Shown here in pieces: positions 6,302 to 30,200 of a DNA stretch of 34,956 bases. The position numbers were made by a program, and so were the translations under genes. The DNA lies in the IMG/VR virus record IMGVR_UViG_3300021400_000047, one strand, 5' to 3'. Every line of letters begins with the position of its first letter. Position 1 is the first letter of the stretch. The notes below the pieces were generated by a model that worked only from the letters and a program-made list of their open reading frames with translations, had not been told where the DNA came from and did not search any database. This DNA is from a virus.

Positions 6302-6438
6302 ATTGCGCCCTCACTTACTCCCAGATTAGCAGGCAGCGTAACCGCCACGCCGCTGCCGCTGTTTATCTGGTGCTCTATGTACTTGCGTATCCTGCCTACG
6401 TTGCCTTTAAGATATTTCTTACGCTGTCGTCTATTCAT
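6247..6438 (-). CDS. Hypothetical basic protein
   Basis: 63 aa starting MNRRQRKKYLKG. Overlaps the next ORF by 55 nt, so its true extent or reality is uncertain. Confidence 0.4.
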   Translation of the reverse strand: MNRRQRKKYLKGNVGRIRKYIEHQINSGSGVAVTLPANLGVSEGAIWEMIRAAQENRAQKAKS

Positions 6439-15763: not shown

Positions 15764-15970
15764 TTATGCAAAAAGCGCTTTTTGTGCTCTGTCTGCGCTG
15801 TAGCCCGTGTGATCTCGTCCACTTGCGCCGCCTCTTTCCAGTTCTCGGTAAAGGGTAGCGCGGTGTACGCCCATTTCTGCTACCATTGCCGTTACCTTTT
15901 CGCCAGCCTTTACCATTTCCTCTAAGCGCTGGCGGTCTTTGTAGTTCAGTTTTTTATATGTCCGTGCCAC
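15764..15970 (-). CDS. Stand-alone IS30-type HTH protein (homologue of the adjacent transposase N-terminus; regulator or truncated remnant)
   Basis: GTG at 15970 follows AAAGGAG with an 8-nt spacer. MARTYKKLNYKDRQRLEEM..MGVHRATLYRELERG..YSADRAQK aligns with transposase MARRFKQLTKADRLKIEAL..IGVHRSTIYRELKRG..YSADMADQK. The track's TTG start at 15991 lies inside a terminator T-tract. Confidence 0.6.
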   Translation of the reverse strand: MARTYKKLNYKDRQRLEEMVKAGEKVTAMVAEMGVHRATLYRELERGGASGRDHTGYSADRAQKALFA

Positions 15971-15999
15971 TTCCTTTGCTCCTTTCCGCAAATAAAAAA

Positions 16000-16155: not shown

Positions 16156-17208
16156 TCAAAGCCCTATTTTTGCCATTTCCTGCCTAAAAAGGTCGCCTGC
16201 ATTGTAAAAGCCCAGCAGCTCCCGTGGGTAGTTGTTTATCCAGTCCTCTACTGCCTGTATGTCCTCGTCGGTCATATCGTCAAAGTTTACGCCTTTTGGT
16301 ATCTTTCGTCTTACCATTTTGTTAGTGTTCTCGTTTGTGCCTCTCTCCCAGCTGCTGTACGGGTGGCAGTAGTATAGCTTTGTCCGCTGCCCGTCTCCTA
16401 AGCTGCTACCCTCTAAGCCCTCGCAGTCTGCAAACTCTGTGCCGTTGTCTACTGTGATAGTTTTAAACACGTCGCTAAAGCGCTCGCCGTACTGTGCCTC
16501 TAAGCTATCCAGTACCGCCACTACAGCTGCTGCCGTATGCTCTTGCAGCTTAAATAGCAGCTCGTCGCGTGTCTTTCTCTCTGATAGTACCAGTAGGCTG
16601 TTTTTACTTTTGCCTCGCTGCCCTATTACTGTATCCATTTCCCAGTTACCAAACTCTTGCCGCGTCTGTATGTCCTCTGGGCGCTTTTCTATGCTCGTAC
16701 CTGCTGCCGCTTTCTTTTGCGTGCGCTCCACTTTCTTATACTGGCGCTTGCGCTTTCCCTTAACAGGCAGGTGCTTATTTGTCAGCCGCAAAAATATGCC
16801 CTTGTCTATGTAGCTGTAAAGCGTGGTAACGCATATGCTTACGCTAAACTCTGCCGCCTTGCCCGTTACCTTAAGCTCTCCCAGTACGGCTGCTGGGCTG
16901 TAGTCGTCCTCTACTATTTTCTTTTCTATATAGTTTGCGTACTCTATGTCGTTGCCTATCTTAAGCCCTGCGCCCTTTTCCTTAAGGTTTGCCCTGTATT
17001 TCTGGTCTGCCATATCAGCGCTGTAGCTTTCCGTTTCCGTCCAGTCGCTATTACGCTTTGTATAAGCGCCCCGTTTAAGTTCCCTGTAAATAGTGCTGCG
17101 GTGTACGCCTATCTGTGTTGCTATGTCCGCAGGCTTATGCCCTGCATTGTGCAGCGCCTCTATTTTAAGGCGGTCTGCTTTTGTAAGCTGCTTAAAACGT
17201 CTCGCCAT
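16156..17208 (-). CDS. IS30-family DDE transposase
   Basis: 350 aa. N-terminal HTH (LTKADRLKIEAL..IGVHRSTIYRELKRG). Catalytic core GNWEMDTV...ITVDNGTEF...YYCHPYSSWERGTNENTN (D, D, E signature of IS30). Confidence 0.9.
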   Translation of the reverse strand: MARRFKQLTKADRLKIEALHNAGHKPADIATQIGVHRSTIYRELKRGAYTKRNSDWTETESYSADMADQKYRANLKEKGAGLKIGNDIEYANYIEKKIVEDDYSPAAVLGELKVTGKAAEFSVSICVTTLYSYIDKGIFLRLTNKHLPVKGKRKRQYKKVERTQKKAAAGTSIEKRPEDIQTRQEFGNWEMDTVIGQRGKSKNSLLVLSERKTRDELLFKLQEHTAAAVVAVLDSLEAQYGERFSDVFKTITVDNGTEFADCEGLEGSSLGDGQRTKLYYCHPYSSWERGTNENTNKMVRRKIPKGVNFDDMTDEDIQAVEDWINNYPRELLGFYNAGDLFRQEMAKIGL

Positions 17209-17235
17209 AGTTTTGCCCTCTCTTTAGTGATAAAA

Positions 17236-17260
17236 AGCCGCAGGCGTTATACCTGCGGCT
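17236..17260 (-). terminator. Rho-independent terminator after the HIRAN gene
   Basis: 9-bp stem agccgcagg / cctgcggct with a 7-nt loop. The minus transcript continues UUUUUA. Confidence 0.65.
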
Positions 17261-17279
17261 TACCTGTACGCTACTTATG

Positions 17280-17810
17280 TTATGCTCGTACCTTTATTTC
17301 TATATTACAGCCGTATGTTAGGTCGTCGCCGCCTGTGATCTCGGTAACTACTGCCGTAATTTTGTTATCTTTGTACTTTCGGTCTAACTCTGCTGCCAGC
17401 TCTGCGCTTAGGTTACCCAGCACTCGCCCGTTATGCTTTACGTATGCTGCTGGCTCTCCCTTATACTGGTATGGCTCTATCGTGATCTGCTCGCCGCCTC
17501 GTAAAGTCTTAAGTAAATCCTGTCTGTTTGTTCCGTCCTCGTTGTCAAAGGTTACACCTACTACCTTTGTGCGTATGGTGTTAAGCAGGCGCTCGCCCTC
17601 TGGCGCTGTCTTTGCCTCTGTTTTGCCGTACTTTTCCTCTACTTTTTCCACTTTTCCACGCTTGCCCAGCCAAAAGCCTACGCCTGCTACTACTGCTGCC
17701 ACTACGATACACTCTACGCCGCCTACAGCGTTACCTTTTGCCAGCGCAGCTATGCCAGATATAGCCACTACTGCTGCAATAATGTAAAGTATCATGCTCT
17801 TTTTGTTCAT
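17280..17810 (-). CDS. Membrane-anchored HIRAN-domain protein
   Basis: Two N-terminal TM helices (ILYIIAAVVAISGIAALA; VECIVVAAVVAGVGFWLG). C-terminus TKVVGVTFDNEDGTNRQDLLKTL..GEQITIEP...EPAAYVKHNGRVLGNLSAELAAEL matches the HIRAN pattern. Confidence 0.6.
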   Translation of the reverse strand: MNKKSMILYIIAAVVAISGIAALAKGNAVGGVECIVVAAVVAGVGFWLGKRGKVEKVEEKYGKTEAKTAPEGERLLNTIRTKVVGVTFDNEDGTNRQDLLKTLRGGEQITIEPYQYKGEPAAYVKHNGRVLGNLSAELAAELDRKYKDNKITAVVTEITGGDDLTYGCNIEIKVRA

Positions 17811-17814
17811 GCCT

Positions 17815-18021
17815 CTACCGTCCTTTCTTTAGTCCTAAAATGTTGTCTGCCGATACGTCTAAACACTTGCATAGTTTTGCCAGCGTGTCTGCGCTCGGTA
17901 TCTGTTTACCCTGCTCCCAGCGGCTTACGTCTTTCTGGTTTACGCCCAGCTTTGCTGCAAGCTCTACCTGCGTTACGCCTGCTGCACGCCTCGCCGCTCT
18001 GATATTGCCGCCCATTGACAT
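17815..18021 (-). CDS. XRE-family (Cro/CI-type) HTH regulator
   Basis: 68 aa. IRAARRAAGVTQVELAAKLGVNQKDVSRWEQGKQIPSADTLAKL is a canonical HTH_3 pattern. Confidence 0.85.
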   Translation of the reverse strand: MSMGGNIRAARRAAGVTQVELAAKLGVNQKDVSRWEQGKQIPSADTLAKLCKCLDVSADNILGLKKGR

Positions 18022-18073
18022 ATTAGCCCCCTTTCGCTTAGTGTTCTATCTTTCGTGCTGTGTTGTGTACCCT

Positions 18074-18102
18074 ATAATATACCCTCTACGTTATATTTTC
18101 AA
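18074..18102 (-). promoter_or_regulatory. Near-consensus sigma-70-type promoter upstream of the XRE gene
   Basis: Minus strand: TTGAAA (18102-18097), 17-nt spacer, TATTAT (18079-18074). Direct AGGGTA repeats flank the -10 element. Confidence 0.55.
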
Positions 18103-18154
18103 GATAAAAAGCAAGCACAAAGCGTACTTTTTGCCCTGTGCCTGCTATGATCTG

Positions 18155-18349
18155 TTACGGCTTAAAGCCTCTAAGCTCTATAAGTGCCTCTCGTAGTGCT
18201 GTTGGCTCTGTTTTCTCTGCGCAGCTGCCGCGTGTCTCTGGCTTTTCTACCTGCTCTGCGTACAGTGGGCATAAATCGCAGCCCATTGTAAGCGTGCACG
18301 CAGCATTAGCCATAAGGATACGCAGCGCTTTTAGTTCCTGCTCGCTCAT
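18155..18349 (-). CDS. Hypothetical small Cys-containing protein
   Basis: 64 aa with a 4-nt overlap with the endolysin stop. No motif recognised. Confidence 0.45.
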   Translation of the reverse strand: MSEQELKALRILMANAACTLTMGCDLCPLYAEQVEKPETRGSCAEKTEPTALREALIELRGFKP

Positions 18350-19755
18350 ACCGTTACATAGTCTGGGTGCATATATCCTACGGTAGTGCCGTATTTTACA
18401 TGATACCAGCCGTTTTGCTTTGTGTTATCCCAGTACATTACCGTGCCCTTGCGCACTGTGGTAAGTATAGCGGTATCCGTGCTGCCGCCTTTTCTGATAC
18501 GTACCCCGTTAGCGTTGCAGATTACCTTACGGGTAAAGCCTGCTGCCGTGCTCGGTTTACTGTAGTTGTTTGAGATGTACCCAGCTACGCCGTTAATAAG
18601 TACATGATACCAGCCGTTTTGCTGTGTGCCGTCATATTGCAGCACGTCGCCCTTTTTGGCTACTGCAATAACCTTGTAAGCTGTGCTGCCGCCCGTCCTT
18701 ACATTTACTGCGCTGCCCGTTACGGTCACTGTGCCCACGCTCTTAAAGTCTGCTGCGCCCGTGTCTGCCTCTGATAGCCTAAGCACGCAGCCCCACGGGT
18801 AGTTATAATATGGTCTTACGCAGATTTCCTTTTGTGTCTGGTCGCCAGTAGCGCCGCCCGTTGCCTTTCCTTTCTCGTTAATGCTTGCGTGTACCAGCTG
18901 CCCGCTGCCAGTATAAAGCGCTGTGTGCTTTCCCTCTGCTAAAAGCACGTCGCCTACTTTCATGCCTGCCGTGGTCTTAAGGTTTACTTTGCTGGTAACG
19001 TCCGTAAAGCCAGTCTTTAAGAAAACCTTACGCATATTGCCCGTATAGGTTGCCCCGTTTGTCTTTACTGGTACGCCCGCCTTTTCGTAGGCTGTAATAA
19101 CCAGCCCGCTACAGTCAAAGTTAGGGTTGCCCCAGCGGTCTACTTGGTCGTAGCCGTGGCTGTCGTCTCTGGCAATAGCTACCGCGTAGTCTACTGCTTT
19201 CTGTGCCTTTGCTCCCATTTTCCCCGCCTCGCTTTCTCTCTGCTGGGTTGTCGTAGTTCCTGCGTACTTGTCGTAGTACGTCTGCCCAAAGCCTGCGCGC
19301 CTGTTCTTTGCCGCCTCGCTCTGGTCTTTTGGTCTTTCAAATTTGAGTAAAATTACGTCGCTGGCAGCTTTTACACTGTCTGCAATAGCAAGCGCCTGCA
19401 TAATGGCTGCGTTGCTGCTAAGTTCCTCGTATAAGTAGTTAAGCTGTGTGCTAAGGTCTGCAATGCTTGTGCCTGCTGCCTTTGCTCTGGCTAACAAGTT
19501 CTGTTTTCTCGTCCAGTACGTCCACTGTGCCAGCCCATAGCCTGCGCTGTCTCTTGCAAAGTTCGTGTACGTGCCGTTATCCACGGCAGCGGTGTACTGG
19601 TCGTCGTTTAAGCCTAAGCTCTTCTCGTAGGTGTTCTGCAAGTTGTTTGGCTTTAGTCCGCTCTCTGCCCACAAGTTGCCCATAATACCAGCTGCTGCAT
19701 AGTCGTTAAAGCCCTTGCCCTTTAAAAAAGTCCATATGATCTGCTCGTTATCCAT
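18346..19755 (-). CDS. Multidomain endolysin: lysozyme-like domain + NlpC/P60 peptidase + two SH3b repeats
   Basis: AAGIMGNLWAESGLKPN (phage lysozyme-like domain). NFDCSGLVITAYEKAG...GKHTALYTG (NlpC/P60 Cys/His). Two copies of V(N/R)VR.GGST...GWYHV..NG..GY (SH3_3). Confidence 0.85.
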   Translation of the reverse strand: MDNEQIIWTFLKGKGFNDYAAAGIMGNLWAESGLKPNNLQNTYEKSLGLNDDQYTAAVDNGTYTNFARDSAGYGLAQWTYWTRKQNLLARAKAAGTSIADLSTQLNYLYEELSSNAAIMQALAIADSVKAASDVILLKFERPKDQSEAAKNRRAGFGQTYYDKYAGTTTTQQRESEAGKMGAKAQKAVDYAVAIARDDSHGYDQVDRWGNPNFDCSGLVITAYEKAGVPVKTNGATYTGNMRKVFLKTGFTDVTSKVNLKTTAGMKVGDVLLAEGKHTALYTGSGQLVHASINEKGKATGGATGDQTQKEICVRPYYNYPWGCVLRLSEADTGAADFKSVGTVTVTGSAVNVRTGGSTAYKVIAVAKKGDVLQYDGTQQNGWYHVLINGVAGYISNNYSKPSTAAGFTRKVICNANGVRIRKGGSTDTAILTTVRKGTVMYWDNTKQNGWYHVKYGTTVGYMHPDYVTV

Positions 19756-19770
19756 GCCGCTACCTCGTCT

Positions 19771-20124
19771 TTATTTCTGTGTCGTGTTTACCAGCTGCTG
19801 CACGCTCGCGTTGCTTTCAAGTAGCCTCTTCATTTCCTCTAAAGCCTCGTCTACCAGTCCGCTAAACTGCTCAAACGTGATAACTTTAGCCAGCCAGCCA
19901 AACTTACTTAAAAACAGGTCGTACACATAGCGCAGCTTTAGCTTACCTGTGCCGCCGCCTAACTCTTTCTCTGCCATTGTTACGGCATAAAGCAGCCACT
20001 CTTTTACCTTGCTAAGCTGCTTATCTGTAGGCATATTGTAAAACTTAATGCCTGCCACTACGCCAGCTGTGATAGCTGCCACAAGCGCCACAATAAGCGC
20101 CCAGTTTTCTGTAATAAACTCCAT
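19771..20124 (-). CDS. Holin, LL-H-like
   Basis: 117 aa. N-terminal TM ENWALIVALVAAITAGVVAGI followed by a soluble helical tail. Immediately upstream of the endolysin. Confidence 0.65.
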   Translation of the reverse strand: MEFITENWALIVALVAAITAGVVAGIKFYNMPTDKQLSKVKEWLLYAVTMAEKELGGGTGKLKLRYVYDLFLSKFGWLAKVITFEQFSGLVDEALEEMKRLLESNASVQQLVNTTQK

Positions 20125-20142
20125 TACTTTTACCTCGCTTTC

Positions 20143-20487
20143 TTAGCCCAGCGCGCCGCCGTCGTCCTCGTTATCTAAGTCTATAAACTCTAAGCCGTCG
20201 TCTGGTGCGCTTTCCTCTTTGTCGCCCTTTCTTTTGTGCCCTGCTATCTTTAGTGCGTTCTCTGCGCCCGCCTTTATCATGTAGCCGCCTACCACTACTC
20301 TAAATGTTTCGTTTGCCTCGCTTATAAGCGTGCCTATGGTGGCGGTGTCCTGCCAGATAGCGCAGATAATAAGCGCATACGCGCAGCTGATAAAGTACAG
20401 CACTGCTGTAATTACCACTACGCGCTTGCTAAACTCCCATAACCACTTTACGGGCTGCTTTTCTCTCTTTCTCTTTCTTACCCTCAT
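20143..20487 (-). CDS. Hypothetical membrane protein (lysis-cassette associated)
   Basis: Basic N-terminus, TM VVVITAVLYFISCAYALIICAIW, acidic C-tail. Confidence 0.5.
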   Translation of the reverse strand: MRVRKRKREKQPVKWLWEFSKRVVVITAVLYFISCAYALIICAIWQDTATIGTLISEANETFRVVVGGYMIKAGAENALKIAGHKRKGDKEESAPDDGLEFIDLDNEDDGGALG

Positions 20488-20853
20488 TTACTCGCCCTCT
20501 GTATCCACGTCTCTGTAGTGATCTATGCGTAGCTGGCGCTCAATATTGTTAAGTCTCTGCTCGTGCGCGTCTAAGCGCTTGTGCTCGCTCTTCTGGCTCT
20601 GCTCCATAATAAGTAGCTTGTCGTGGTTTTCTCTGTTGTCCTGCTTTACGGTGTTTATCTCGTTTTCAATCCGTGTAAGCTGGTTTTTGATATTTTCCAA
20701 AGCTATCATTATGCCAGTTGTGCGCTCGGTGCTTTTCTCTGTGTCCTCTCTTTCCTCTTTCTTTTGGCTTTTATTTGTGTTTGTGGTGTTGATAACAGCC
20801 ATAAACAAGGCTACAGCCAAAGCCCCTAAACTCAACCAGTTTGCAATAGTCAT
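20488..20853 (-). CDS. Hypothetical membrane-anchored coiled-coil protein
   Basis: N-terminal TM WLSLGALAVALFMAVI, then a heptad-like region. ATGA overlap with the RT stop. Confidence 0.5.
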   Translation of the reverse strand: MTIANWLSLGALAVALFMAVINTTNTNKSQKKEEREDTEKSTERTTGIMIALENIKNQLTRIENEINTVKQDNRENHDKLLIMEQSQKSEHKRLDAHEQRLNNIERQLRIDHYRDVDTEGE

Positions 20854-21938
20854 GCCGCCGCGCTCCTTTCCTGCGTCTCACGTTCTTTTATTGTCCTGTC
20901 TGCAAGTGCTATTATTTTCTCTCTTAGGTGGTAGCTGTCGGCGTGTCCTGCGTGCCCCGTCCAGCTGCATATACTCTTTTGTAAGCTCTCTTTTGTAGTC
21001 TCGCCGCGCTCGTACTGCTTAATAGTACGCTTTATACGCTTTATGCTGTCCTTGCGTACTTTCTTGTGCGTCGCCCTGTGTTTATAGCCTACAAAGTCTA
21101 TGCCGCCCGTGCTTGCGCATACTATAGTTGTTTTTGGGTTAAACGATAGCAATAACTCTGTATTTATAAACGCCTCTATCTTTTGTAGCCAGTCCTTAAG
21201 CTGCTCTATGTCTGGGCTAAGTATTATAAAGTCGTCCATGTAGCGTATATACTTCTTTACGCCCAGCACTTCCTTTACGTACTTGTCTAAAGCGTCCAGA
21301 TATACGTTAGCAAACAGCTGGCTTGTAAGGTTGCCTACAGGTATGCCCGTACCGTCTGGCATTTCGCCGTTGTGGTCTATAATGCGATCTGTAAGCAGTA
21401 GTACGTTTTCGTCCTTAATAACTCTGCGTATTTCTTTCTTTAGTCTGTCGTGGTTAATGCTCTTAAAGTAGGCGTGTATATCTGCCTTAATCGCGTACAG
21501 TTTCTCGCCCTTGTGATATTTCTCCCAGTCATATAACCACTTTTGCAGCGTGTCGCTGGCTGCGTGGCTGCCCTTGCCTTTTCTACAAGCGTAGCTATGC
21601 CTGTAAAAGCGTTTCTCAAATATAGGCTCTAACACGTTATTTATAGCGTGCTGTACTACCCTGTCGTAAAAAGGTAGCGCCATGATCTGGCGCTCTTTCG
21701 GCTCATAAACTTTAAAGTATCTGTAGCCGCTTGGGTTGTATGTAAGCTCTATAAGCTCTGCCTGCGTCCGCTGTAAGTTTTCCTCTTTCTTTTGTGTGTA
21801 CTTAAGTACCTCTTTTCTGTACCTCTTGCCGCGTCTGGCTTTGTTGTAGCTTAAAAGCAGGTTGCTGTAGTCGTAAATTGCCTCGTGCAGCGTTACTACC
21901 TGCCCTGCCGCGTTTGTTGTAGTTCCTACGCGTCTCAT
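20850..21938 (-). CDS. DGR reverse transcriptase
   Basis: 362 aa. RT motifs RVVQHAINNVLEPIFE, SYACRKGKGSHAA, IPVGNLTSQLFANVYL and YIRYMDDFIIL (YMDD box). Lies next to the TR/VR pair and Avd. Confidence 0.92.
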   Translation of the reverse strand: MRRVGTTTNAAGQVVTLHEAIYDYSNLLLSYNKARRGKRYRKEVLKYTQKKEENLQRTQAELIELTYNPSGYRYFKVYEPKERQIMALPFYDRVVQHAINNVLEPIFEKRFYRHSYACRKGKGSHAASDTLQKWLYDWEKYHKGEKLYAIKADIHAYFKSINHDRLKKEIRRVIKDENVLLLTDRIIDHNGEMPDGTGIPVGNLTSQLFANVYLDALDKYVKEVLGVKKYIRYMDDFIILSPDIEQLKDWLQKIEAFINTELLLSFNPKTTIVCASTGGIDFVGYKHRATHKKVRKDSIKRIKRTIKQYERGETTKESLQKSICSWTGHAGHADSYHLREKIIALADRTIKERETQERSAAA

Positions 21939-22253
21939 ATAAAATGCTCCTGCCTTTCGCCGTAGCTACTAACCAGCAGCCCTACTTTTTCTCTTTACCT
22001 CTAAAGGTGGGTGCATTACCTCTGACTATAGGCTAAAGGCTTAGCCTTTATAATCCTTGCCAGCGCCCCGTAGGGTACTGCGCCTGCAAAATACCTTTAT
22101 CTAAGTCACACGCGCCCCGCACGCCGTTGTTCGTGTTCACGTTCCACGGGTAATTGTTGCAATTCACCGCGCGCGCACCGTCCTGCGCTCCATTGTTCCA
22201 GTTGCCGCCCGCTATCAGCGCCGCTAAAAGCTGCTTTAAGGTATTGCCCCGTC
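21939..22253 (-). ncRNA. DGR template RNA region (TR plus TR-to-RT spacer)
   Basis: Non-coding gap between avd and RT. Contains the TR and a spacer with small hairpins (for example taaaggc/gccttta, 22034-22050). Confidence 0.55.
22105..22228 (-). repeat. DGR template repeat (TR)
   Basis: 124 bp matching VR at an offset of 590. 14 mismatches, all at plus-strand T (sense A) of this copy. In the VR frame it encodes LAALIAGGNWNNGAQDGARAVNCNNYPWNVNTNNGVRGACD. Confidence 0.92.
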
Positions 22254-22643
22254 CTATCTTTTGTTATTACGGCGTGTGCTTTCTATTTCCTGCACCGCCT
22301 CTATGATCTCGCCCAGCTCTACGCCGATTTCAGTAAATCTTTTACTGGTTTCTTTGTAGTGCTGGGCGTTCATAGCACTATATTTTAGGTCATGCGCCAG
22401 CCGTACCAGTTCCTTGCTTTCCTGTAAGCAAGCGTCTGCGGTATATAGGTGGCTCTTTCCGTATGTTTTCTGCCACTTAATTACCTCGCGCAGCACGTCT
22501 AATATGCTGCTGCGTGTCGCTGCTTGCAGGCTAAACTTTTCGTACTTTGGATACTTAGAAAGCAGCGGGTAAACGTATAGCAGAAAGTCGTAAATTTTCT
22601 GGTGCAGCTCTGCGCTTTTTGTTTTTATCTCTTCCTGCGTCAC
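22254..22643 (-). CDS. avd: DGR accessory variability determinant (Avd, four-helix-bundle protein)
   Basis: 129 aa, helical. YDFLLYVYPLLSKYPKYEKFSL... typical of Avd / 23S-IVS four-helix-bundle proteins. Located between the target gene and TR. GTG start after AGAGGGCGAGGAC. Confidence 0.8.
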   Translation of the reverse strand: MTQEEIKTKSAELHQKIYDFLLYVYPLLSKYPKYEKFSLQAATRSSILDVLREVIKWQKTYGKSHLYTADACLQESKELVRLAHDLKYSAMNAQHYKETSKRFTEIGVELGEIIEAVQEIESTRRNNKR

Positions 22644-22663
22644 GTCCTCGCCCTCTTTCTAAG

Positions 22664-22684
22664 CGGCTGCGCTTTCGCGCGCCG
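22664..22684 (-). promoter_or_regulatory. GC-rich hairpin with a GAAA (sense) tetraloop just 3' of VR (candidate DGR target-recognition hairpin)
   Basis: Pairs 22664-22672 (T22668 bulged) with 22677-22684, 8 bp. Loop tttc on plus is GAAA in the sense direction. Begins about 10 nt after the VR end and right after the target stop codon. Confidence 0.5.
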
Positions 22685-22685
22685 T

Positions 22686-23828
22686 CTACAGACTGTCACA
22701 CGCGCCCCGCACGCCGTTGCCCGAGCCCACGTACCACGGGCAATCGTCGCAATTCACCGCGCGCGCACCGTCCCGCGCTCCACTGCTCCAGCTGCCGCCC
22801 GCTAACAGCGCCGCTAAAGAGGCGTAGTAGTACTGGTAAATGTTACCCACGTCGTAGCCGTCTGCTGGTGTCTTTAACGGGCTTGTTAAATCCCAGCCCC
22901 ATGCCTGCGACGCATGGTACGTAGTATTTGTGGCGTGCTCTGCTCTTGTGATAAGCTCGTCTAACCACTCCCATACATTGCCTACAGCGTCTCTTACGCC
23001 TACTGCGGATACTGCACGGGCTACATAACCTGTAGTCTTTCTGCCTGTATTGCTTGTAGCGCTCCATGCGTTGTCGTTGCTGTTATCCAGTCCAGCAGGG
23101 CTGCCAAAAGCATACGCGCAAAACTCTGCATAGTTCGGCATACGCTTGCCAGATTTCTGCAAGCGCTCTACAAAGGTGTACCAGCTCATGCCCTCTGTAC
23201 CAGTCATAGGCGTAGCGCCGTACTCACTGCTAAGCCCGTACTCGCCGTCGTCGCTGTTAAGGTAAATGTCTACCCATGTACCGCCGCCTAAATATACCAT
23301 GCCCTCTGGTGCGCACTTAGGGCGGTGTCCTAAAGTCCACACGCTCTTAGGTACAATACCGTCGTATACGTTGCTCTCCCAGCCGCTGCCAAAGCGCACG
23401 CCTGCTGCATTTACTGGCTGCTGGTTGCTGTCTACCTTACGGCACTTTCCATAGTGAAAACCGCCGATTTTACGGCTGTTTGTTGCGTTCCAGCCCTGCG
23501 GGTACGTAGCATTTTTAGAGATATAGTACAGCTCGTCGGTGTCGTCGTTCTGGGTGTCGCAAAGGTATACGTAATAGTCCTTACCTACCTCAAAAGCTGC
23601 GCCTGTATCCAGATTAGCGGCAGTAAGTACAGTCGTGCCCGTCTCAAAAATGCCGCTGCCTGCAATAGAGATAACGCAGCCCTGCACTACAGTAAGCTGC
23701 TGCTCGCCACTTGCGTACAAGTACTCTTTTGTAGGTGTTACAATGTCCGACACAAGCGCCATTTTGCTTACGTTAAGCAGCGCCCTGCGGTCTGTTTTTG
23801 TAATATCGTCTACCAGTAGTCTACTCAT
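22686..23828 (-). CDS. DGR target protein: Mtd-like receptor-binding/tail-fibre protein with C-type-lectin (FGE-like) fold
   Basis: 380 aa. GNVWEW motif. The C-terminal 41 codons are the VR (...GGSWSSGARDGARAVNCDDCPWYVGSGNGVRGACDSL). Last gene of the tail-fibre block. Confidence 0.85.
   Translation of the reverse strand: MSRLLVDDITKTDRRALLNVSKMALVSDIVTPTKEYLYASGEQQLTVVQGCVISIAGSGIFETGTTVLTAANLDTGAAFEVGKDYYVYLCDTQNDDTDELYYISKNATYPQGWNATNSRKIGGFHYGKCRKVDSNQQPVNAAGVRFGSGWESNVYDGIVPKSVWTLGHRPKCAPEGMVYLGGGTWVDIYLNSDDGEYGLSSEYGATPMTGTEGMSWYTFVERLQKSGKRMPNYAEFCAYAFGSPAGLDNSNDNAWSATSNTGRKTTGYVARAVSAVGVRDAVGNVWEWLDELITRAEHATNTTYHASQAWGWDLTSPLKTPADGYDVGNIYQYYYASLAALLAGGSWSSGARDGARAVNCDDCPWYVGSGNGVRGACDSL
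22695..22818 (-). repeat. DGR variable repeat (VR)
   Basis: See TR. Covers the last 41 sense codons of the target gene apart from the two codons before the stop. The invariant GC-rich 3' end GGCGTGCGGGGCGCGTGTGAC is IMH-like. Confidence 0.92.
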
Positions 23829-24255
23829 AATTCTTTAAAACCTCCCTAATAGCTGCTATGTCTGCCTCGGTCATGCCCACGCGTGCCAGTACGTCTACGC
23901 TGTTCATAACCTTTACTACGGTTACGTCCTGCGGTACAGCTACCGATAAGCCCAGCTTTGTTACGCTCTGCTCGTCGCTGCCCTGCTCTGCCTGCACGTT
24001 AGTAACTGTGGTTACATTGCCTTTAGCGTCGCCTGCCTTAAATTCTGCGCCTACCTCTGCCTCTGTGCAGTAAAGTACTGTAACCTCTTTGCGGTTGTTA
24101 CTTATCTGCAAGATATTGCAAGGTATGTAGCGGCGCTCTTCCAGCGCGTCCAGCGCCTCTACCAGTCCTGCTGCCTCAAGCTCGCCAGCCTGTACCATTG
24201 CAAGGCAGTTGTAGTAGTCCTCTTTGGTTTTTAGTTTCTTAGGATACCCTTTCAT
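23821..24255 (-). CDS. Hypothetical tail-fibre-associated protein
   Basis: 144 aa with an 8-nt overlap with the DGR target start. No motif recognised. Confidence 0.5.
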   Translation of the reverse strand: MKGYPKKLKTKEDYYNCLAMVQAGELEAAGLVEALDALEERRYIPCNILQISNNRKEVTVLYCTEAEVGAEFKAGDAKGNVTTVTNVQAEQGSDEQSVTKLGLSVAVPQDVTVVKVMNSVDVLARVGMTEADIAAIREVLKNYE

Positions 24256-24283
24256 GCTTTTTAGCTCCTTTCTTAGTGGTTAC

Positions 24284-25144
24284 CTATGATACAAGATAAG
24301 TACCGCCGCAATAAGCCGCGCCCAGCCATGCTACGGTAGTTATGCTTGCTATCTCCTGTACGTCTCTTTGCAGCTGTGCTATGTCTGCTGCGTTTGTCTC
24401 TATCTCCTGCTGCAAGTGTGTTACTGTTTCCTCGTCTAACAGGTCGTGCAAGGTGTCAAGCCATGCCGCTATATCGTCCTCTGTGTCTGTCTTATAGCCA
24501 GCCAGCCACGCCGTAAACTCGTTAAGCGCGCTTGTAGCTCCCTGCCTGTCGGTGTTAATGTCTGCCAGATAGTTGTTATACTGGCTTATGATCTGCTGCT
24601 CATACTGCCTAAAAAAGTCGTTAAACTGTGCTGTAAGCGTTGTAGCGTCTATCTGGTCTACTACGCCGTGTACGATACCGCAAAGGCTGCTATTATAGCG
24701 CTGGTCTGTAATATTTGCCTGTGTGATACTGGTAACGCCTTTGCCTACCAAAATATCAGCTACGCATAAGTCGTAAATCTCGCTTGTGCGTGTTAGTGAT
24801 CTCGCTACAGGGTTTGCGCTCGGTGTACCCTTAAGCACCGCTATGTAAATCATGCGCTGCGTAATATCCCAGCGTACTATAACGCGGTCTATACGTGGTA
24901 AGCTGCCGTCTGCTGTATCCAGTGTTATGCTAAAGTCCTCTGGATTTCTAAAGGCGTAGCCGTTAATAAACGCATAGCCAGCTTTGGCTAATACCGTCAT
25001 GCCGTTACTTGCTACTACCTGTAGCCCCGTTTCTGGCTTAGGAAAAACGCCGTTACCGATAAATGTAGCAAAGTACCACGCCCAATCCTCTGCTTTTCCT
25101 ACGCGGTCATGGTTAATACTGTTAAATGGTAAATAATTTAGCAT
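24284..25144 (-). CDS. Putative tail fibre / baseplate protein
   Basis: 286 aa. Located in the distal tail block, with a C-terminal coiled-coil segment. Function assigned by position only. Confidence 0.45.
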   Translation of the reverse strand: MLNYLPFNSINHDRVGKAEDWAWYFATFIGNGVFPKPETGLQVVASNGMTVLAKAGYAFINGYAFRNPEDFSITLDTADGSLPRIDRVIVRWDITQRMIYIAVLKGTPSANPVARSLTRTSEIYDLCVADILVGKGVTSITQANITDQRYNSSLCGIVHGVVDQIDATTLTAQFNDFFRQYEQQIISQYNNYLADINTDRQGATSALNEFTAWLAGYKTDTEDDIAAWLDTLHDLLDEETVTHLQQEIETNAADIAQLQRDVQEIASITTVAWLGAAYCGGTYLVS

Positions 25145-25149
25145 TGCCG

Positions 25150-26304
25150 TTACCTCACTCTCTTAATTTTCTCTACCAGTGTCGGCAGGCTCTCGCCAAA
25201 GGTTGCTTGTATCTCTTCCTGCCCTTTCTGGTAAACTTCCTGTACCTCTGTTATGCGCGCGTCTATTCTTAAGCCCCAGCTGCGCTCTAAGCAGGTTATA
25301 CGGTCGCCTAAGTTAAAATCGTCCTTAAATCTTAGGTTACTTGCCGTGTTAATCGTGCTTACAAAGTTCATGCGCTCGCCGTAGTTTTCCAGCTCGGTAG
25401 CGCCTCTGGTACGCAGCATAGCAAGGTACGTATTTAACGGTATCGGCACGCTTGTGCCGCCGCTCTCATAGCTGCGGCTTATGTCGCTTGCGTCTATAAA
25501 AACCTCGTCCAGCTCTAAGCCCTGCTTGTTGCCGCCGTCCACGGTAGCTACTGGCTGTGCGCCCGCCTCGTCCGCAGCTCCCTGCACGTATGTAAAGTTT
25601 TTATAGCTCTCTATGCTGTCCTCGTACTCTTGCCCGTTTACATTGTCAAAGTCTCTGCTAAAGATACAGGGCGGGTTACCTGCGCTGTTACCCGCTGTAA
25701 GGTCGTCGCCCTTGTAGAGATAAAAGCCGTAGAGCTTGTCGCGCTCGTTTACTAAAATGTCATAGCCCAGCTTACCGCTTACTGCTACGTCCTTTACCTC
25801 GCTGCCTAAGTCTACGTACAGCTCGTTTGAGTAGTCCACGCTGCTGCCGCCGTAGCTATCCTGCGCAAGTACTGTAAACTGCGTAAACTTTCTCTTTGTG
25901 GTGGCATTTGCGCCGCAGTTATTTGCTACCAGTGCGTTTATGATCTGCTGGCACGTTGCGGTAGTTACCAGCTGCGGCGTTACCACTCTCTTGCTTAACC
26001 ACTTAGAAAGCATAAAGCCTTGTGCCTCTATCTGCTCCTGCCCGCGCTCGTCTTTCGTGATATGTACGTACATTATCTGTGCAGCCCTGCGCCATATGCC
26101 GCCGCTACCGTCCTCTACTTCCTTTTTGCCGTCGTGCTTTATGATAATGTTACCCATGCTAAGCAGGTTGCTGTTATTGTCCGTTACTGGTGCAAGCAGG
26201 TTAAACGTGCCTACGTCAAAGTATTTAATAGTCCATAACAGGCTTGCTATTTCGTCCACAATGCCTAACGGCTCTAATGCCTTGTCGAATACTCTAAGCT
26301 CCAT
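25150..26304 (-). CDS. Tail-associated (Tal-like / siphovirus Gp37-like) protein
   Basis: 384 aa immediately after Dit. N-terminus MELRVFDK..LEPLGIVDEIASLLWTIKY resembles the Gp37-like family. Confidence 0.55.
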   Translation of the reverse strand: MELRVFDKALEPLGIVDEIASLLWTIKYFDVGTFNLLAPVTDNNSNLLSMGNIIIKHDGKKEVEDGSGGIWRRAAQIMYVHITKDERGQEQIEAQGFMLSKWLSKRVVTPQLVTTATCQQIINALVANNCGANATTKRKFTQFTVLAQDSYGGSSVDYSNELYVDLGSEVKDVAVSGKLGYDILVNERDKLYGFYLYKGDDLTAGNSAGNPPCIFSRDFDNVNGQEYEDSIESYKNFTYVQGAADEAGAQPVATVDGGNKQGLELDEVFIDASDISRSYESGGTSVPIPLNTYLAMLRTRGATELENYGERMNFVSTINTASNLRFKDDFNLGDRITCLERSWGLRIDARITEVQEVYQKGQEEIQATFGESLPTLVEKIKRVR

Positions 26305-26307
26305 GCT

Positions 26308-27201
26308 TTATACCCCCAGATACTTAGCGTTATAAACCAGTGATACTTCCATAGCGTTTACCCCGCTGCCTGCGTCGTATCTAAAGATATTGTCGCCTAT
26401 GTTGAGCTGCATAAAGGTGCTGTCTACGTCTATGTAGCGGTAGTAGTCTATTGTTTCGCCGTTCCTGTAAAGGGTAGCGCCCTTGCTGCCGTACTCTGTG
26501 TTTACCTCTATAACGTCGCCTGTTTGCATGGTGGCATTGATCTGTATAAACTCCAAAGTATCCACGTTAAGCAGTATAGGATTTTCTACAGTTCCCAGCG
26601 CGCTAAAACGTATGCGCATACCTGTTGCTACGTCGCCGCTGTTGTAGCAGTCTACAATTATGCTTTGCTCGCGGTAGCCCCATATCATGCTTGTATCGTC
26701 CTCTAAGTCTATGTCGTATGGAAACTCCCACGCGCCTACCCAGCTGGCTATATCCTCGCGTATTTCGTCCTCTTCCTGCCAAAAAGGGTTACTACAGCGT
26801 AGCGTAAGCTCAAACTGTACAAGCGGGTTGCCCTGTTTTCTGTAAAACTCTGGCGTATCGTCCACTGTACACTTTATTACCCTCTTAAAGTCTCCGTACT
26901 CATACGTAAGCACGCCCTCTAACTCTGGGTTAAGCGTCTTAAGCGCCCTGCGGCGCAAGGTGTAAGCATAGTCTTTGCTCTTAGAGTTTATCGCACCCGC
27001 TACTTTGATCTCGCGCGGTTCTATGTGCATACCCGTTTTTGTTTCCCCGTGCTGCCCCATAGAGCTTGTGCCGTAAATCTCGTTTTGTATGTCCGATATG
27101 CCCGTAACGTCTGTGCTTACGTTTACATGGTATAAGCTCTGCGTGCTAAGCTCTATGCTTTCGCCTCTGCTGTTTGTATAGGTTAGCTTTTCAATACTCA
27201 T
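26308..27201 (-). CDS. Distal tail protein (Dit)
   Basis: 297 aa directly after the tape measure. LTYTNSRGESIEL...NPELEGVLTYE... typical of the siphovirus tail family protein. Confidence 0.7.
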   Translation of the reverse strand: MSIEKLTYTNSRGESIELSTQSLYHVNVSTDVTGISDIQNEIYGTSSMGQHGETKTGMHIEPREIKVAGAINSKSKDYAYTLRRRALKTLNPELEGVLTYEYGDFKRVIKCTVDDTPEFYRKQGNPLVQFELTLRCSNPFWQEEDEIREDIASWVGAWEFPYDIDLEDDTSMIWGYREQSIIVDCYNSGDVATGMRIRFSALGTVENPILLNVDTLEFIQINATMQTGDVIEVNTEYGSKGATLYRNGETIDYYRYIDVDSTFMQLNIGDNIFRYDAGSGVNAMEVSLVYNAKYLGV

Positions 27202-30200
27202 GCGTATACCGCCCTTGCTATTGTCTTAAAGTTTCTGGCTGCCTCGCGCTGCTGCCTTGCGTAGTCCTGCTCGTTTGCGTAAATGTACTGGTTTACTACC
27301 AGCCCACCTGCTGCCCTCGCTCTGCTTACGCCTGCTGCCTCTACGCCGCCTACCTTTACGCGTGGCTCTACGTCAAACTCTGTAGGTATGCTGTCCTGCA
27401 TTACCTTAGCTACGCTGCCCATTTCCTGTTCAAAGCCTACGCCGATACCCTGCGCTGCAAACTTTCCTACCTCGTCTCTAAATTTCTTTGACGGGCTTTC
27501 AATTCCCAGCGCGTCCTTAGCTGCGTCCAAAAGGCTTTTTGCAAGGTTTTTAACCTTGTCTTTAAGCCAGTCCCAGCCAGCGCTTATGCCGTTCCAGATA
27601 CCGTTTACAATGTTGCTGCCTATGTTCTTAAAGTCCTCGCCTATGTTGCTAAAGGCATTTTTAATACCGTTTACTGCATTGTTCATGCCCTCTACGGCTT
27701 TGTTCTTTACCTCGTTGCCCCACTCTGCGATTTTGGATACAGCCCCAGATACCGCGTTATAAATCTTTGTAGGCACTTCTTTTACAATGTTCACAATGCC
27801 AGTTACCATAGAGTTCATAACCTCTTTGGCTTTGTTAATCATGTTTGTGCCCCACGTAGCAATTTTGGTTACTGCGTCCGCTACTGCGTTCCATATCTTT
27901 GTAGGCACTTCTTTTACAATGTTCACAATGCCAGTTACCATAGAGTTCATAACCTCTTTGGCTTTGTTAATCATGTTTGTGCCCCACGTAGCTACCTTTG
28001 TAACCGCTCCTACTACGGCGTTCCAGATTTTCTGCGGTACTTCCTTAACGATATTTACAATGCCAGTTACCATGCTGTTCATAACGTCGCGTGCTTTATT
28101 CTGCATATTTAAGCCCCACGTAGCCACGCGTACTACCGCGTCTACTATTGCGTTCCAGATTTTCTGCGGCGTTTCCTGCGTAATGGTAACAATGCCGTTA
28201 AGCATTGTAGTCATTACCTCTTTAGCCTTGTTAAGCATATTAGTGCCCCACTGCTGCACGGTGTTAATGGCATTTGCTAAAGTCTCGTTAAGTTTCTGTG
28301 GCAGCTCTGTAATGCCGTTTATCATACCCTGTACTATGTAGTCGCCCTGCTCTTCCATAACGGTACTTGGGCTGTGGATACCAAAAAAGCCTTTAATACC
28401 GTCCAGTATGCCGCCGCCTAACGTCTTTGCAGCCTCAAATACTGCGCTTACACCGCCTACAAGTCCATTTACAATACCTGTGATAATGTTAGGCACTGCC
28501 TCTGCCAGCCCTGCTATAACGTCTGGTATAGCCTCTATGATCTGCCCAAACAGGTCTTTAGCTCCTGTAAGCAGCTTTGGTATACCGTCTGCAAGTGCCG
28601 TGGCAATGGTTGTAATGATCTCTGGCAGCGCATTTGCAAGCGCTACTATAATGTCTGGCAATGCCTCTAAGATAGCCATAAACAGCTTTATGCTGCCCTC
28701 AATAATCAAAGGCATACCAGTTATAAGCCCGTTTACTATCGCCTCTATGATCTGCGGCAGCGCGTTTATAAGTGCGTCGATAATTGTAGGTATAGCCTCT
28801 ACAATAGCCATAAGCATTGTTATAGCTCCGTCGATAATAAGCGGTATTGCCTTTATAAGCGCGTCTATAATGTTCGTTATGATCTCTGGCAGCGCATTTA
28901 CAATAGCTACAATTACCTGCGGTATAGCCTCTACGATACCGCAAAGCAGCTGTATGCCTGCCTCAATAATCATAGGGATATTTTGTATAAGCATATTCAC
29001 AATGCCTATAACTACCTCTACAATTTGTGGCAGTAATGTAGGTAGCGCCTGCGCAATGCCCTGCGCCAGTGTTACTATGATCTCTACGCCTGCCTGTAAA
29101 ATCTGTGGTAAAGCGTCAAGTAGCACGCCTATAAGCTGGGTAGCCGTGTTTAGTACTACCTCAATAAGCGTAGGCAGCGCCTGTGTGATACCGTCCACCA
29201 AAGCTGCAAGCAGTGTAGGCAATGCCTCTAAAAGCGCTGTGCCCACGCTGGTAATAGCGTTTAAAATCGTAGGTACTGCCTGCGATATATTGTTTACTAT
29301 GCCAGTAATGCCCTCTTTAATCTTTTCGCCTGCGGTGTCATTTCCTGCCATAAGGTCGCTTAAGCCGTCCATTACGCTGGATATACTCGGCAAAAAGTCG
29401 CCCATAAGCCTATTTTTTAAGCCGTTAAAAGTGCCCTGCAAACGGGTTAAGCTATCCTCAAACGCTGCGCTTGCTGCTACTGCGTCCTCGCTCATTACCA
29501 TGCCGTATGCGTCTGCCTCTTCCATAAGCTCTTTAATGCCCTCGCTACCGCTGTTAAGCAGTGGCAAAAGCTCTGCTGCGCTCTTTCCAAAGATTTCATT
29601 AGCCGCAGCGTTGCGCGCTGTCTCGTCGTCCATAGCTGCCAGCGCGTCTATGCTTTCCATAAGCACTTGCTCTGTGCTCTTTAAGCTGCCGTCTGTATTC
29701 TTAAGAGATACGCCCAGCGCTGCAAACTTATTGCCTGCGCCCTCTACGCCCTGCTGTGCCTTGCCCAGCTCGTCCGTAATGTTCTTTACGCCTTTCTTAA
29801 GGTCGTCTATGCTGCTACCGCTGCGTTCGCAGGCGTAGCTAAGCTCTTGGTAAAGGCTGCTGCTTATCTGTAATTTTTGGCTTTCCTTGTCTATCTCGTC
29901 GCCTGCTGCCGCTGTGTCGTTTGCCATATCCCATATAGCCTTACCAGCTGCTACAGCTGCTGTGCCGATAGCTGCAAGGGCTGTGCCGATAGCTGCGCCC
30001 ACGGTCTTAAGTTTGCTGCCTAAGCCCTCAAACTTGCCACCTGCGTCCTCTGCCTGCTTTCCGCTTTCTTTCGTCTCGTCGCCCAGCTCGTCCATTTCCT
30101 TTGCGGTCTTATCCAGCTCTGCGCCAGTCTGGGTAAGTGCAGTCTTGGCATAGTTTAACTGCGTTTCCAGCTTTTTTGTTTCCTCGCTGTCCTCGCCAGT

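Follow-up and report, generated by a model that had tools for sequence, protein, structure and literature searches.

The 34,956-nt stretch of viral DNA analyzed here (the window) harbors on its minus strand what is very probably (at about 0.92) a canonical, currently active diversity-generating retroelement (DGR) of a temperate siphovirus of Clostridia with Lachnospiraceae-type hosts. Direct support exists for the parts of the element, for its adenine specificity, for the flow of sequence from a template repeat (TR) to a variable repeat (VR) in natural populations, and for conserved RNA and DNA structures. The element is a further member of a well-known class and is not novel in kind, and, in a class whose mechanism is already well understood, it adds little new in itself. 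Its practical value lies in a compact cassette of ~3 kb that is active in nature and belongs to a widespread lineage of Clostridia phages; its natural VR variants and close relatives, available by the dozen, offer covariation support for RNA and DNA elements that were defined biochemically in Bordetella.

Protein components of the element

The reverse transcriptase (RT; 362 aa, positions 20850..21938, minus strand) was identified by Pfam, PHROG, and PDB matches and by its motifs. It matches Pfam RVT_1 (9.5e-21) and PHROG 1423 (9.6e-133), and its best match in the PDB is the Bordetella bRT (8ub7_A; 3e-54, 187 bits), with group II intron and retron-type RTs forming the next class at ~75 bits (3e-20). 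The group II model TIGR04416 gives 149 bits against a cut-off of 300, and the protein carries the motifs VGNLTSQ, which ends at residue 207, and YMDD (233). Judged by best match, group II model score, and motifs, the enzyme belongs to the DGR clade; the grouping with retron or group II intron clades that would have refuted the preliminary description is not seen. An AGGAG ribosome-binding site for the RT lies at 21947-21951 (minus strand).

Adjoining the TR, a 129-aa ORF (22254..22643, minus strand) had been proposed to encode the accessory variability determinant, Avd, and NCBIfam NF033474 (DivGenRetAVD; 83.8 bits, cut-off 80), Pfam bAvd (PF22296; 4e-19, 69.4 bits, cut-off 40), and PHROG 3206 ("Avd protein of DGR"; 1e-26) all confirm this identity. 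With target, Avd, TR, VR, and RT all found, the DGR is complete as previously claimed, and the order target-avd-TR-RT on the minus strand is indeed that of Bordetella phage BPP-1.

The target gene (22686..23828, minus strand) encodes a 380-aa homologue of Mtd from Bordetella phage, as judged by matches to Pfam mtd_2nd (9.6e-41), PHROG 11262 ("tail protein"; 1e-88), and the PDB entry for Mtd (1yu4_A; 1.7e-18, residues 48-380); the FGE-sulfatase family scores 22.1 bits, slightly below its cut-off of 23.3. The PDB match aligns the VR onto the VR of Mtd, and sequence homology to the Mtd crystal structures puts the VR at the 3' terminus of a gene for a predicted C-type-lectin-fold ligand-binding domain. 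The gene belongs to the distal tail module, where it is preceded by Dit, Tal, and two further genes of the module. From these matches the target is probably the receptor-binding protein of the virion, and its VR variants would switch tropism. An active DGR could also diversify a tail or virion protein that binds some other ligand, such as host glycans or mucus, with no switch in tropism: C-type-lectin-fold targets of DGRs bind diverse ligands, and the case for a receptor is built only on Mtd homology (28% identity to the BPP-1 group) and gene position. That homology, however, is full-length, between proteins of equal length and with the VR at the same place, the position is one downstream of Dit and Tal, and near-identical prophages from different Clostridia genera carry different VRs. 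We consider a non-receptor ligand quite unlikely and retain the receptor-binding assignment.

The repeat pair and its variation in natural populations

The TR (22105-22228, minus strand; 29 adenines) and the VR (22695-22818, minus strand; target codons 338-378) align without gaps over 124 nt at an offset of 590, and the homology ends sharply at either side. Base-by-base re-alignment gives 14 mismatches, located in plus-strand TR numbering at 22130, 22131, 22134, 22136, 22137, 22143, 22151, 22155, 22158, 22184, 22193, 22196, 22202, and 22215. Every one falls on a plus-strand T, which is an A in the minus-sense TR (composition A29 G47 C30 T18); the chance of placing 14 of 14 mismatches on the 29 A sites is C(29,14)/C(124,14) = 7e-11. 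The substitutions from TR to VR comprise 11 A>G and 3 A>T changes and alter 12 codons. These counts, and the peptides translated from the two repeats, reproduce the preliminary description exactly, and no substitution at a non-adenine position emerged within the window. The mismatches had also been assigned to the first two positions of AAC/AAT-type codons. The positional part of that statement holds (seven at the first position, seven at the second, none at the third), and the codon type applies to 8 of the 12 altered codons, the remaining four being ATA, CAG, TAC, and ACG.

The VR is in frame within the last 43 codons of the 380-aa target ORF. In the TR, 26 of the 29 adenines occupy codon positions 1-2, 10 codons are AAY, and no stop codon can be created by adenine substitution; the computed repertoire is 4^27 DNA variants and ~7e14 protein variants. 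A repeat search of the window returned the TR/VR pair as the top family, at 89% identity, and no further TR-like copy in the 34,956 nt.

Adenine specificity was independently examined in natural populations, using metagenome contigs of the same phage that share an identical RT or Avd protein; the population VRs are consensus sequences of metagenome assemblies. Among these independent contigs there are 20 distinct VRs, and 301 of their 308 differences from the TR lie at TR adenines. Per site, this corresponds to mismatch rates of 0.52 at adenines and 0.0037 at other positions, so population variation is all but confined to A-templated sites; the preliminary interpretation withstands each of the three refutation tests set for it (re-alignment, RT grouping, and population variation). 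Ordinary point mutation, rare errors at non-A bases, or mixed assemblies may account for the seven remaining mismatches. Some 40 relatives with ~70% identical RTs, prophages in isolate genomes among them, carry the same cassette, again with VR differences at A only, and the exact RT sequence occurs in 171 indexed blocks of the assembly collection.

The TR itself is constant in 23 contigs apart from two rare point variants, G61A and C88T (2 of 124 columns variable, compared with 32 in the VR). In each case the VR on that contig carries the variant too, which shows recent transfer from TR to VR, and in L132/L005 and L137 the new A61 has itself been mutated to G in the VR. A near-invariant TR, a hypervariable VR, and the copying of both TR variants together reveal ongoing, one-way transfer.

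These data bear on two other explanations of the repeat pattern. A single TR/VR comparison cannot date mutagenesis, and the pattern in the window could by itself record only the past activity of a decayed or inactive DGR. Against such a relic, the ORFs for RT, Avd, and target are each intact, the catalytic YMDD is present, the genomes that carry the 20 different VRs are 97.6-100% identical across the cassette, and recent TR point variants have already been copied into the VR; we regard loss of activity as very improbable. Alternatively, point mutation, selection, and recombination between phages could have made a receptor-binding protein hypervariable in the ordinary way, with the TR a chance or paralogous repeat. 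Outside the VR, the target is somewhat more variable (7.0% of columns) than avd (4.4%) or the RT (3.2%), as this explanation would have it. The concentration of VR differences at TR adenines, the intergenic location of the TR next to Avd and RT, its near-invariance, and its lack of any other copy in the window make ordinary hypervariability a vanishingly small prospect, and an active DGR remains the preferred reading.

RNA and DNA structures around the repeats

Fold prediction places a GC-rich hairpin or cruciform directly after the VR (22664..22684, minus strand), of sequence CGGCGCGC-GAAA-GCGC(A)GCCG. Its 8-bp stem with one bulged A begins 10 nt past the VR and 1 nt past the stop codon of the target. 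In relatives with ~70% identical RTs the hairpin reads CGGCGGGC-GAAA-GCCC(A)GCCG, with a compensatory C-G to G-C change, and in L069 it reads GACCCCGC-GATA-GCGGGGTC. Published descriptions of such hairpins specify a GC stem of 7-10 bp, a GRNA loop, and a location 4-34 bp from the VR (PMC3240598); by that description, the window contains both a GC-rich VR 3' end and a downstream GRNA-loop hairpin. No T-run follows the stem, so it is not terminator-like, and by analogy it is proposed to guide the homing of cDNA.

The RNA elements flanking the TR were derived with RNAalifold and by reading of two alignments, A1 and A2. Overall, 97.4% of cells in these elements are paired, as opposed to 29-45% in slid controls, and 11 pairs are compensatory versus 4.4 +/- 1.3 in 500 shuffles, none of which attains 11, with pairs counted on the same alignment that gave the structure. 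Covariation support comes from a stem-loop downstream of the TR and from a long-range duplex. The stem-loop (22059..22083, minus strand), located 21 nt downstream of the TR, is capped by a UACG (UNCG) tetraloop and has nine pairs, four of them with compensatory changes and 99% of cells paired. It agrees in position and loop type with the Avd-binding stem-loop of Bordetella and is, by that analogy, a candidate Avd-binding RNA element. The upstream strand of the duplex (GGCAAUACCUU; 22238..22248, minus strand) is predicted by RNAalifold on A2 to pair with spacer positions 22013-22022, and three consecutive pairs in the window are compensatory relative to relatives. This duplex may correspond to the avd:Sp "cPRT Stop" duplex of Bordetella.

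A second predicted duplex joins the 3' end of the TR plus 4 nt (UGACUUAG; 22101..22108, minus strand) to spacer positions 22023-22031 (RNAalifold); every pair is invariant in 13-15 sequences, and the duplex therefore affords no covariation test. By comparison with the Bordetella TR:Sp pairing, 22101-22108 is a candidate template strand of a template:primer duplex. The spacer segment that takes part in both duplexes (22013..22031, minus strand) consists of CUAUAGUCA followed by GAGGUAAUGC, the first part a candidate primer strand ending at A22023 and the second a candidate strand of the stop-like duplex. The same layout, a primer strand followed directly by a second duplex, appears in the description of the Bordetella RNP (10.1101/2023.10.23.563531). 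Priming of cDNA would then occur at A22023, opposite TR position 121, with G22109 (TR position 120) the first base to be copied. If right, this placement would account for TR A123, which is mutated in 0 of the 20 distinct VRs.

Two further hairpins lie in the spacer. The first, ACCU-UUAG-AGGU followed by the A-rich run AAAGAGAAAAAG (21985..22008, minus strand), was read directly from A1 and A2; relatives have GCC-GUGA-GGC or GCCC-UUAA-GGGC at this site and then the same A-run, an arrangement that appears to match the "stem-loop followed by adenosines" of the cPRT Stop element. The second, GGCUGCU-GGUU-AGUAGCU (21964..21981, minus strand), lies directly before the RT ribosome-binding site; its seven pairs are 100% paired with one-sided changes only, and it is placed like the bRT-binding stem-loop. 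Taken by analogy, the elements flanking the TR would be equivalent in function to those of the Bordetella DGR RNP.

From homology with BPP-1, we infer that cDNA synthesis and mutagenic retrohoming would proceed as follows. A transcript would cover the 3' flank of avd, the TR, and the 166-nt spacer, and this RNA would fold around an RT-Avd complex. The RT would reverse-copy the TR into cDNA with misincorporation opposite adenines, and the cDNA would replace the 3'-terminal VR of the Mtd-like tail gene, its homing guided by the common GC-rich 3' end and the GAAA-loop hairpin right after the VR. The outcome would be at most ~7e14 variants of the ligand-binding face of a receptor-binding protein, none of them truncated by a new stop codon, and hence tropism switching.

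The phage and its relation to known systems

The closest well-characterized system is the BPP-1 DGR (mtd-avd-TR-brt), which shares with the element its gene order and the presence of Avd, and whose RT is the closest solved relative of the RT here. The targets are homologous (380 aa here, 381 in BPP-1), the VR occupies the final ~45 codons, and both systems have a GC hairpin with a GAAA loop after the VR. The spacer RNA predicted here also resembles that of Bordetella in its UNCG-capped stem-loop by the TR, TR:spacer and upstream:spacer duplexes, short hairpin, and A-run. The sequences are nevertheless distant, with targets only ~28% identical; the host here belongs to the Gram-positive Clostridia, not to Bordetella, and the tail module (tape measure, Dit, Tal) is that of a siphovirus. 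The TR has 124 nt and 29 A, whereas that of BPP-1 has 134 nt and 23 A, and the upstream duplex strand lies right after the avd stop codon instead of inside avd. Because identity between TR and VR runs without a break to where they diverge, no IMH/IMH* pair with scattered differences is separately recognizable, unlike in BPP-1. Mtd-type DGRs of prophages in Lachnospiraceae and other Firmicutes resemble the element in host group, phage association, Mtd-domain target, and GRNA hairpin. Examples, compared here by description only, are the element of Eubacterium rectale DSM 17629 (Guo et al. 2011, PMC3240598) and the Mtd-domain targets of "category a" (Wu et al. 2018, PMC5758913).

The phage is an uncultivated temperate siphovirus of Clostridia with Lachnospiraceae-type hosts, of gut or rumen type. 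It encodes a full-length, outward-pointing IS30-family transposase (16156-17208; NF033563, 244 bits, cut-off 80) and a truncated IS30 paralogue (15764-15991; E 8e-14). Homology of the phage to a 112-kb contig stops at 16112; in relatives the transposase gene is syntenic and co-diverged, and their prophage ends lie ~160 bp beyond it. The family occurs integrated in Clostridia chromosomes, and these sequence features suggest integration mediated by the transposase. IS30 elements at both prophage ends, full-length and outward at one and truncated at the other, are also the mark of "IScream" phages, IS30-bounded prophages of gut Clostridia (Nature 2025, PMC12823448), which, set beside the window by description of the published genomes, are likewise siphovirus-like and temperate in Clostridia hosts. 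DGRs have already been noted in that group; a preprint describes a DGR-bearing IScream "prophage02" (PMC12934698). Its RT-Avd DGR similarly lies between structural and lysis modules, but the preprint gives its target a BppU-like N-terminal domain, unlike the Mtd-like target here.

The preliminary description had also listed plasmid-like maintenance genes. ParA-like (AAA_31/CbiA) and ParB_N-DUF3850 genes do exist, but their scores fall below the NCBIfam partition-protein cut-offs (69 versus 180 bits; 46.9 versus 58.45) and the family occurs integrated in chromosomes. Apparent integration via an IS30-family transposase points to a temperate IScream-type phage that is not demonstrably a phage-plasmid. 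Free circles of ~35 kb make up most contigs of this phage and would fit either virions or episomes.

Coprococcus, Roseburia, Pilosibacter, and other genomes harbor near-identical (97-99%) prophages whose adenine-only VRs all differ. The DGR may let this IS30-mobilized lineage lysogenize several Clostridia genera, and, separately, covariation may predict the priming site A22023; taken jointly, the two proposals are possible but doubtful. If true, the first would directly link receptor switching by the DGR to the exceptionally wide range of lysogenized hosts that has been reported for IScream-type phages. The lineage itself was found only in metagenome and IMG/VR contigs and not among deposited phage genomes, whose nearest proteins are 44% (RT) and 40% (target) identical. 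Judging by sample names, the window's contigs may come from ruminant rather than human gut.

Template and variable repeats and the associated proteins

The window carries a complete, canonical and naturally active diversity-generating retroelement (DGR) whose target is an Mtd-type tail protein, and the preliminary description was correct in both observation and interpretation. Re-alignment of the template repeat (TR, 22105–22228) with the variable repeat (VR, 22695–22818), both in minus sense and offset by 590, gives 124 positions without gaps and 14 mismatches. All 14 fall, as had been reported, at adenines of the minus-sense template, which are T on the plus strand; 11 are A>G and 3 are A>T, and there is no substitution at a non-adenine position. 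The TR contains 29 adenines, and the probability that 14 of 14 mismatches hit these sites by chance is 7e-11. Homology drops off abruptly beyond both edges of the repeats. An independent repeat search of the window returned the pair as its top repeat family, and a search with an A-degenerate TR pattern found no further TR copy, second VR or remote target in the window.

The VR lies in frame as codons 338–378 of the 380-aa target ORF (22686–23828, minus strand), and the TR and VR peptide strings read earlier were reproduced exactly. Twenty-six of the 29 TR adenines occupy codon position 1 or 2, and 10 TR codons are AAY. The earlier assignment of the changes to positions 1–2 of 12 codons stands, but their description as AAC/AAT-type does not hold for four of the 12 (ATA, CAG, TAC and ACG). 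The varying adenines, 27 in number, are spread over 16 codons, none of which can yield a stop codon by substitution; the theoretical repertoire is 4^27 DNA sequences and ~7e14 protein sequences.

In terms of gene order, the target, the accessory variability determinant (Avd), the TR and the reverse transcriptase (RT) follow one another as in Bordetella phage BPP-1, in agreement with the preliminary description. The target matches the Pfam Mtd second domain (1e-40), with FGE-sulfatase slightly under threshold, and its residues 48–380 align with Mtd crystal-structure sequences (E = 1.7e-18) such that the target VR lies opposite the Mtd VR. The 129-aa protein encoded at 22254–22643 (minus strand) scores above the curated NCBIfam DGR-Avd cut-off (83.8 versus 80 bits) and matches Pfam bAvd; its membership rests on these profiles. 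A phmmer search against the PDB gave no match for it at E ≤ 0.01. The RT (20850–21938, minus strand) contains an RVT_1 domain with the motifs VGNLTSQ and YMDD and matches PHROG 1423 at ~1e-132. Its best match among all solved structures is the BPP-1 enzyme bRT (8ub7_A, 3e-54, 187 bits), whereas the next structure classes, retron-type (3.2e-20) and group II intron (3.8e-20), score ~75 bits. NCBIfam has models for group II, retron and Drt enzymes but none for DGR-RTs; those it has all score far under their cut-offs (for group II, 149 bits where 300 are required).

The DGR class, its mechanism, the type of target and the group of hosts are all documented already, as are DGRs in IS30-bounded Clostridia prophages. 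The most useful by-products of the present analysis are the evidence of activity from natural variation and the covariation support, in a phage lineage of the Firmicutes, for the recognition elements of DGR RNA and DNA.

Natural variation and activity

In the assembly collection, 171 indexed blocks contain the exact RT protein and 244 the exact Avd, mostly on contigs of ~34–35 kb; source metagenomes include ERZ1756080, ERZ28654835 and ERZ14209543. Four IMG/VR contigs also encode an identical RT. Across 13 contigs aligned over the cassette (97.6–100% identity), 32 of the 124 VR columns are variable (25.8%), compared with 2 of 124 in the TR (1.6%), 2 of 166 in the spacer between TR and RT (1.2%), 35 of 1089 in the RT (3.2%) and 17 of 390 in avd (4.4%). 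The part of the target outside the VR (22819–23828) has 7.0% variable columns between contigs, a higher value than either the RT or avd.

Pooling of 23 contigs yielded 20 distinct VRs. Comparison of each with the TR of its own contig gave 301 mismatches at TR adenines and 7 elsewhere, corresponding to per-site rates per VR of 0.52 at A sites and 0.0037 at non-A sites; the replacing base is G in 178 cases, T in 76 and C in 47. The restriction of population variation to A-templated sites, which had been put forward as a check on the element, is thus observed.

The TR itself varies at two positions, and both variants, which are rare, are mirrored in VRs. Contigs with the TR variant G61A have A at position 61 in most of their VRs, and in the phage contigs L132/L005 and L137 the new A61 has already been changed to G in the VR. 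The TR variant C88T of L005/L132 is likewise found in their VR. Information has therefore flowed recently from TR to VR, and the DGR is active in nature. Among relatives with ~70% identical RTs, about 40 have a ~125-nt TR/VR pair with an offset of ~561 and 5–20 A-only mismatches.

Candidate recognition elements in DNA and RNA

On the sense strand, 10 nt past the VR and 1 nt past the stop codon, positions 22684–22664 read CGGCGCGC-GAAA-GCGC(A)GCCG, a hairpin in which a GAAA loop caps a GC stem of 8 bp with a single bulged A. It conforms to the DGR hairpin/cruciform defined by experiment, in which a GC-rich stem of 7–10 bp carries a 4-nt GRNA loop and lies 4–34 bp from the VR (PMC3240598). In the relatives whose RTs are ~70% identical, the hairpin reads CGGCGGGC-GAAA-GCCC(A)GCCG, a compensatory C-G to G-C change, and in a relative with a 48% identical RT it reads GACCCCGC-GATA-GCGGGGTC. 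The hairpin of the window lacks a T-run and does not resemble a terminator; a promoter/terminator scan of 20400–24400 was uninformative. Single-sequence folds barely beat shuffles for either the hairpin (z = −1.65) or the spacer (z = −1.96), so support for both structures comes from the comparative data.

The RNA was modeled with RNAalifold on an alignment (A2) of the window and 12 relatives that extends from 70 nt upstream of the TR to the RT start. Four minus-strand elements are predicted: duplex (a), between GGCAAUACCUU (22248–22238), shortly upstream of the TR, and GAGGUAAUGC (22022–22013) in the spacer; duplex (b), in which the 3′ end of the TR with 4 further nt, UGACUUAG (22108–22101), pairs with spacer CUAUAGUCA (22031–22023); stem-loop (c), with a UACG cap, at 22083–22059, 21 nt past the TR; and a 3′ hairpin (d) at 21981–21964. 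Directly past the spacer strand of (a), the alignment reveals a short hairpin and, after it, an A-rich run that is invariant. The hairpin reads ACCU-UUAG-AGGU in the window, and its counterpart in relatives is GCC-GUGA-GGC or GCCC-UUAA-GGGC. A long helix proposed by RNAalifold (A2 columns 306–311/350–355) is broken in the window and was replaced by this local hairpin and A-run.

Bases can pair in 97.4% of cells for the named pairs, compared with 29–45% when partners are slid by 1–3 columns, and 11 pairs are changed on both sides, compared with 4.4 ± 1.3 in column shuffles (0 of 500 as high), contrasts that are inflated because the structure was drawn from the alignment in which it was counted. 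The compensatory changes lie in helices (a) and (c); helix (b), in which all pairs are invariant, is neither backed nor contradicted by covariation.

The cryo-EM structure of the Bordetella bRT-Avd-RNA particle has a UNCG-capped Avd-binding stem-loop at the spacer 5′ end, a TR:Sp template:primer duplex that ends in the priming adenosine, with G as the first template base, an avd:Sp duplex directly adjoining it, a short stem-loop, unpaired adenosines and a 3′ RT-binding stem-loop (10.1101/2023.10.23.563531). The layout predicted for the window appears to match this particle element for element. If the analogy holds, priming would occur at A22023, with TR G120 (22109) copied first and TR A123 left uncopied. 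Such priming would fit the invariance of A123 (0 of 20 VRs); alternatively, selection on the Asp codon may keep A123 constant. TR A4 varies rarely (2 of 20). No Rfam family reaches its gathering threshold anywhere in the window.

Phage genome, integration and hosts

Positions 1–107 of the window recur without change at its end (34850–34956), the assembly signature of a circular molecule. This indicates that the phage genome is a circle of 34,849 bp, which the window contains complete and in circularly permuted form. All plausible genes lie on the minus strand. In coding order, they run from the major head gene (33791–34933), head-tail genes and major tail protein through a 1086-aa tape measure, Dit, Tal (Sipho_Gp37) and two unassigned tail-module genes to the Mtd-like target, Avd, TR and RT. 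Membrane proteins with a holin, a multidomain endolysin, an HTH regulator and an IS30-family transposase follow, then early genes (Rep_ORF2-G2P-like, two SSBs, VRR-NUC, ParA-like and ParB_N-DUF3850), and finally HNH, terminase, portal and prohead protease (235–831). The tail is of siphovirus type, since a sheath gene is absent. The window encodes no tRNAs. Along its whole length, AT skew is strongly negative (−0.12 to −0.46), and GC skew is mildly so. Within the tape measure gene (27198–30458), secondary BLAST matches of 81–86% identity, offset by ~132 bp, around 27716–28070 point to internal tandem-like repeats. The two SSB-family genes (5265–5672 and 11150–11794) and the Rep_ORF2/G2P-like replication initiator (9961–10716, 5e-14) are an unusual set of replication genes for a siphovirus.

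The phage is absent from deposited phage genomes and abundant in metagenome collections: megablast of 17000–27000 against the former gave no match, and protein-level searches found distant relatives only (≤44% for the RT, ≤40% for the target). Relatives with the same gene order and 65–75% identical RT, Mtd, Avd, Tal and IS30 proteins are prophages of Lachnospiraceae and other Clostridia, for example Acetatifactor, Coprococcus, Roseburia, Faecalicatena and Pilosibacter, which bears out the earlier assignment to a Gram-positive-type siphovirus. Strains that harbour relatives include Roseburia yibonii BX0805, Coprococcus ammoniilyticus H1_22 and Acetatifactor muris DSM 23669.

The 350-aa gene at 16156–17208 encodes an IS30-family transposase (244 bits, cut-off 80). 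In a 112-kb contig that contains the phage, homology to the window ends at 16112, 44 bp beyond this gene, which points at the break, and an unrelated gene follows. On the opposite side of 16112 sits a truncated IS30 HTH paralogue (15764–15991; 39% identity, E = 8e-14). Five genomes from different genera, isolates or MAGs, contain near-identical relatives (97–99%), all of which lose homology ~160 bp beyond their IS30 gene. Relatives keep this gene in synteny, and their prophages end at that distance from it. No convincing IS30-type terminal inverted repeats were found around 16156–17208. This architecture, with IS30 at the junction, is the same as that of the ‘IScream’ phages, recently described, in which IS30 transposases serve as integrases (PMC12823448); one IScream prophage with a DGR has already been noted in a 2026 preprint (PMC12934698). 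As for the plasmid-like maintenance genes described previously, a ParA-like ATPase (7680–8495) does adjoin a ParB_N protein fused to DUF3850/ASCH (6431–7678), but both score under the curated NCBIfam partition-protein cut-offs.

The early region is mosaic among near-identical genomes (12782–13366 versus 10363–11304 in contig L139 and 10595–11459 in L140), with, for example, a DNA methylase in L139 in place of the 194-aa ORF of the window. Gain or loss from contig to contig also affects several small ORFs that lie between 14500 and the IS30 junction.

Prophages that are 97–99% alike over ~11.9 kb (L086, L088, L091, L102 and L103) reside in genomes named as Coprococcus, Roseburia, Pilosibacter, Clostridium sp. 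and Clostridiaceae bacterium, and these near-identical prophages of different host genera each have their own, different adenine-only VR. It is possible that the DGR is linked to a broad lysogenic host range. A few matches in bins of Segatella and Phascolarctobacterium, which lie on short contigs, may reflect incorrect binning. Sample labels such as XIEF21-1, STEW19-1 and LIUQ22-1 suggest, as labels, a ruminant or animal gut origin for the window's lineage, and the relatives with ~70% identical RTs look, from their names, to be largely from human-gut collections.
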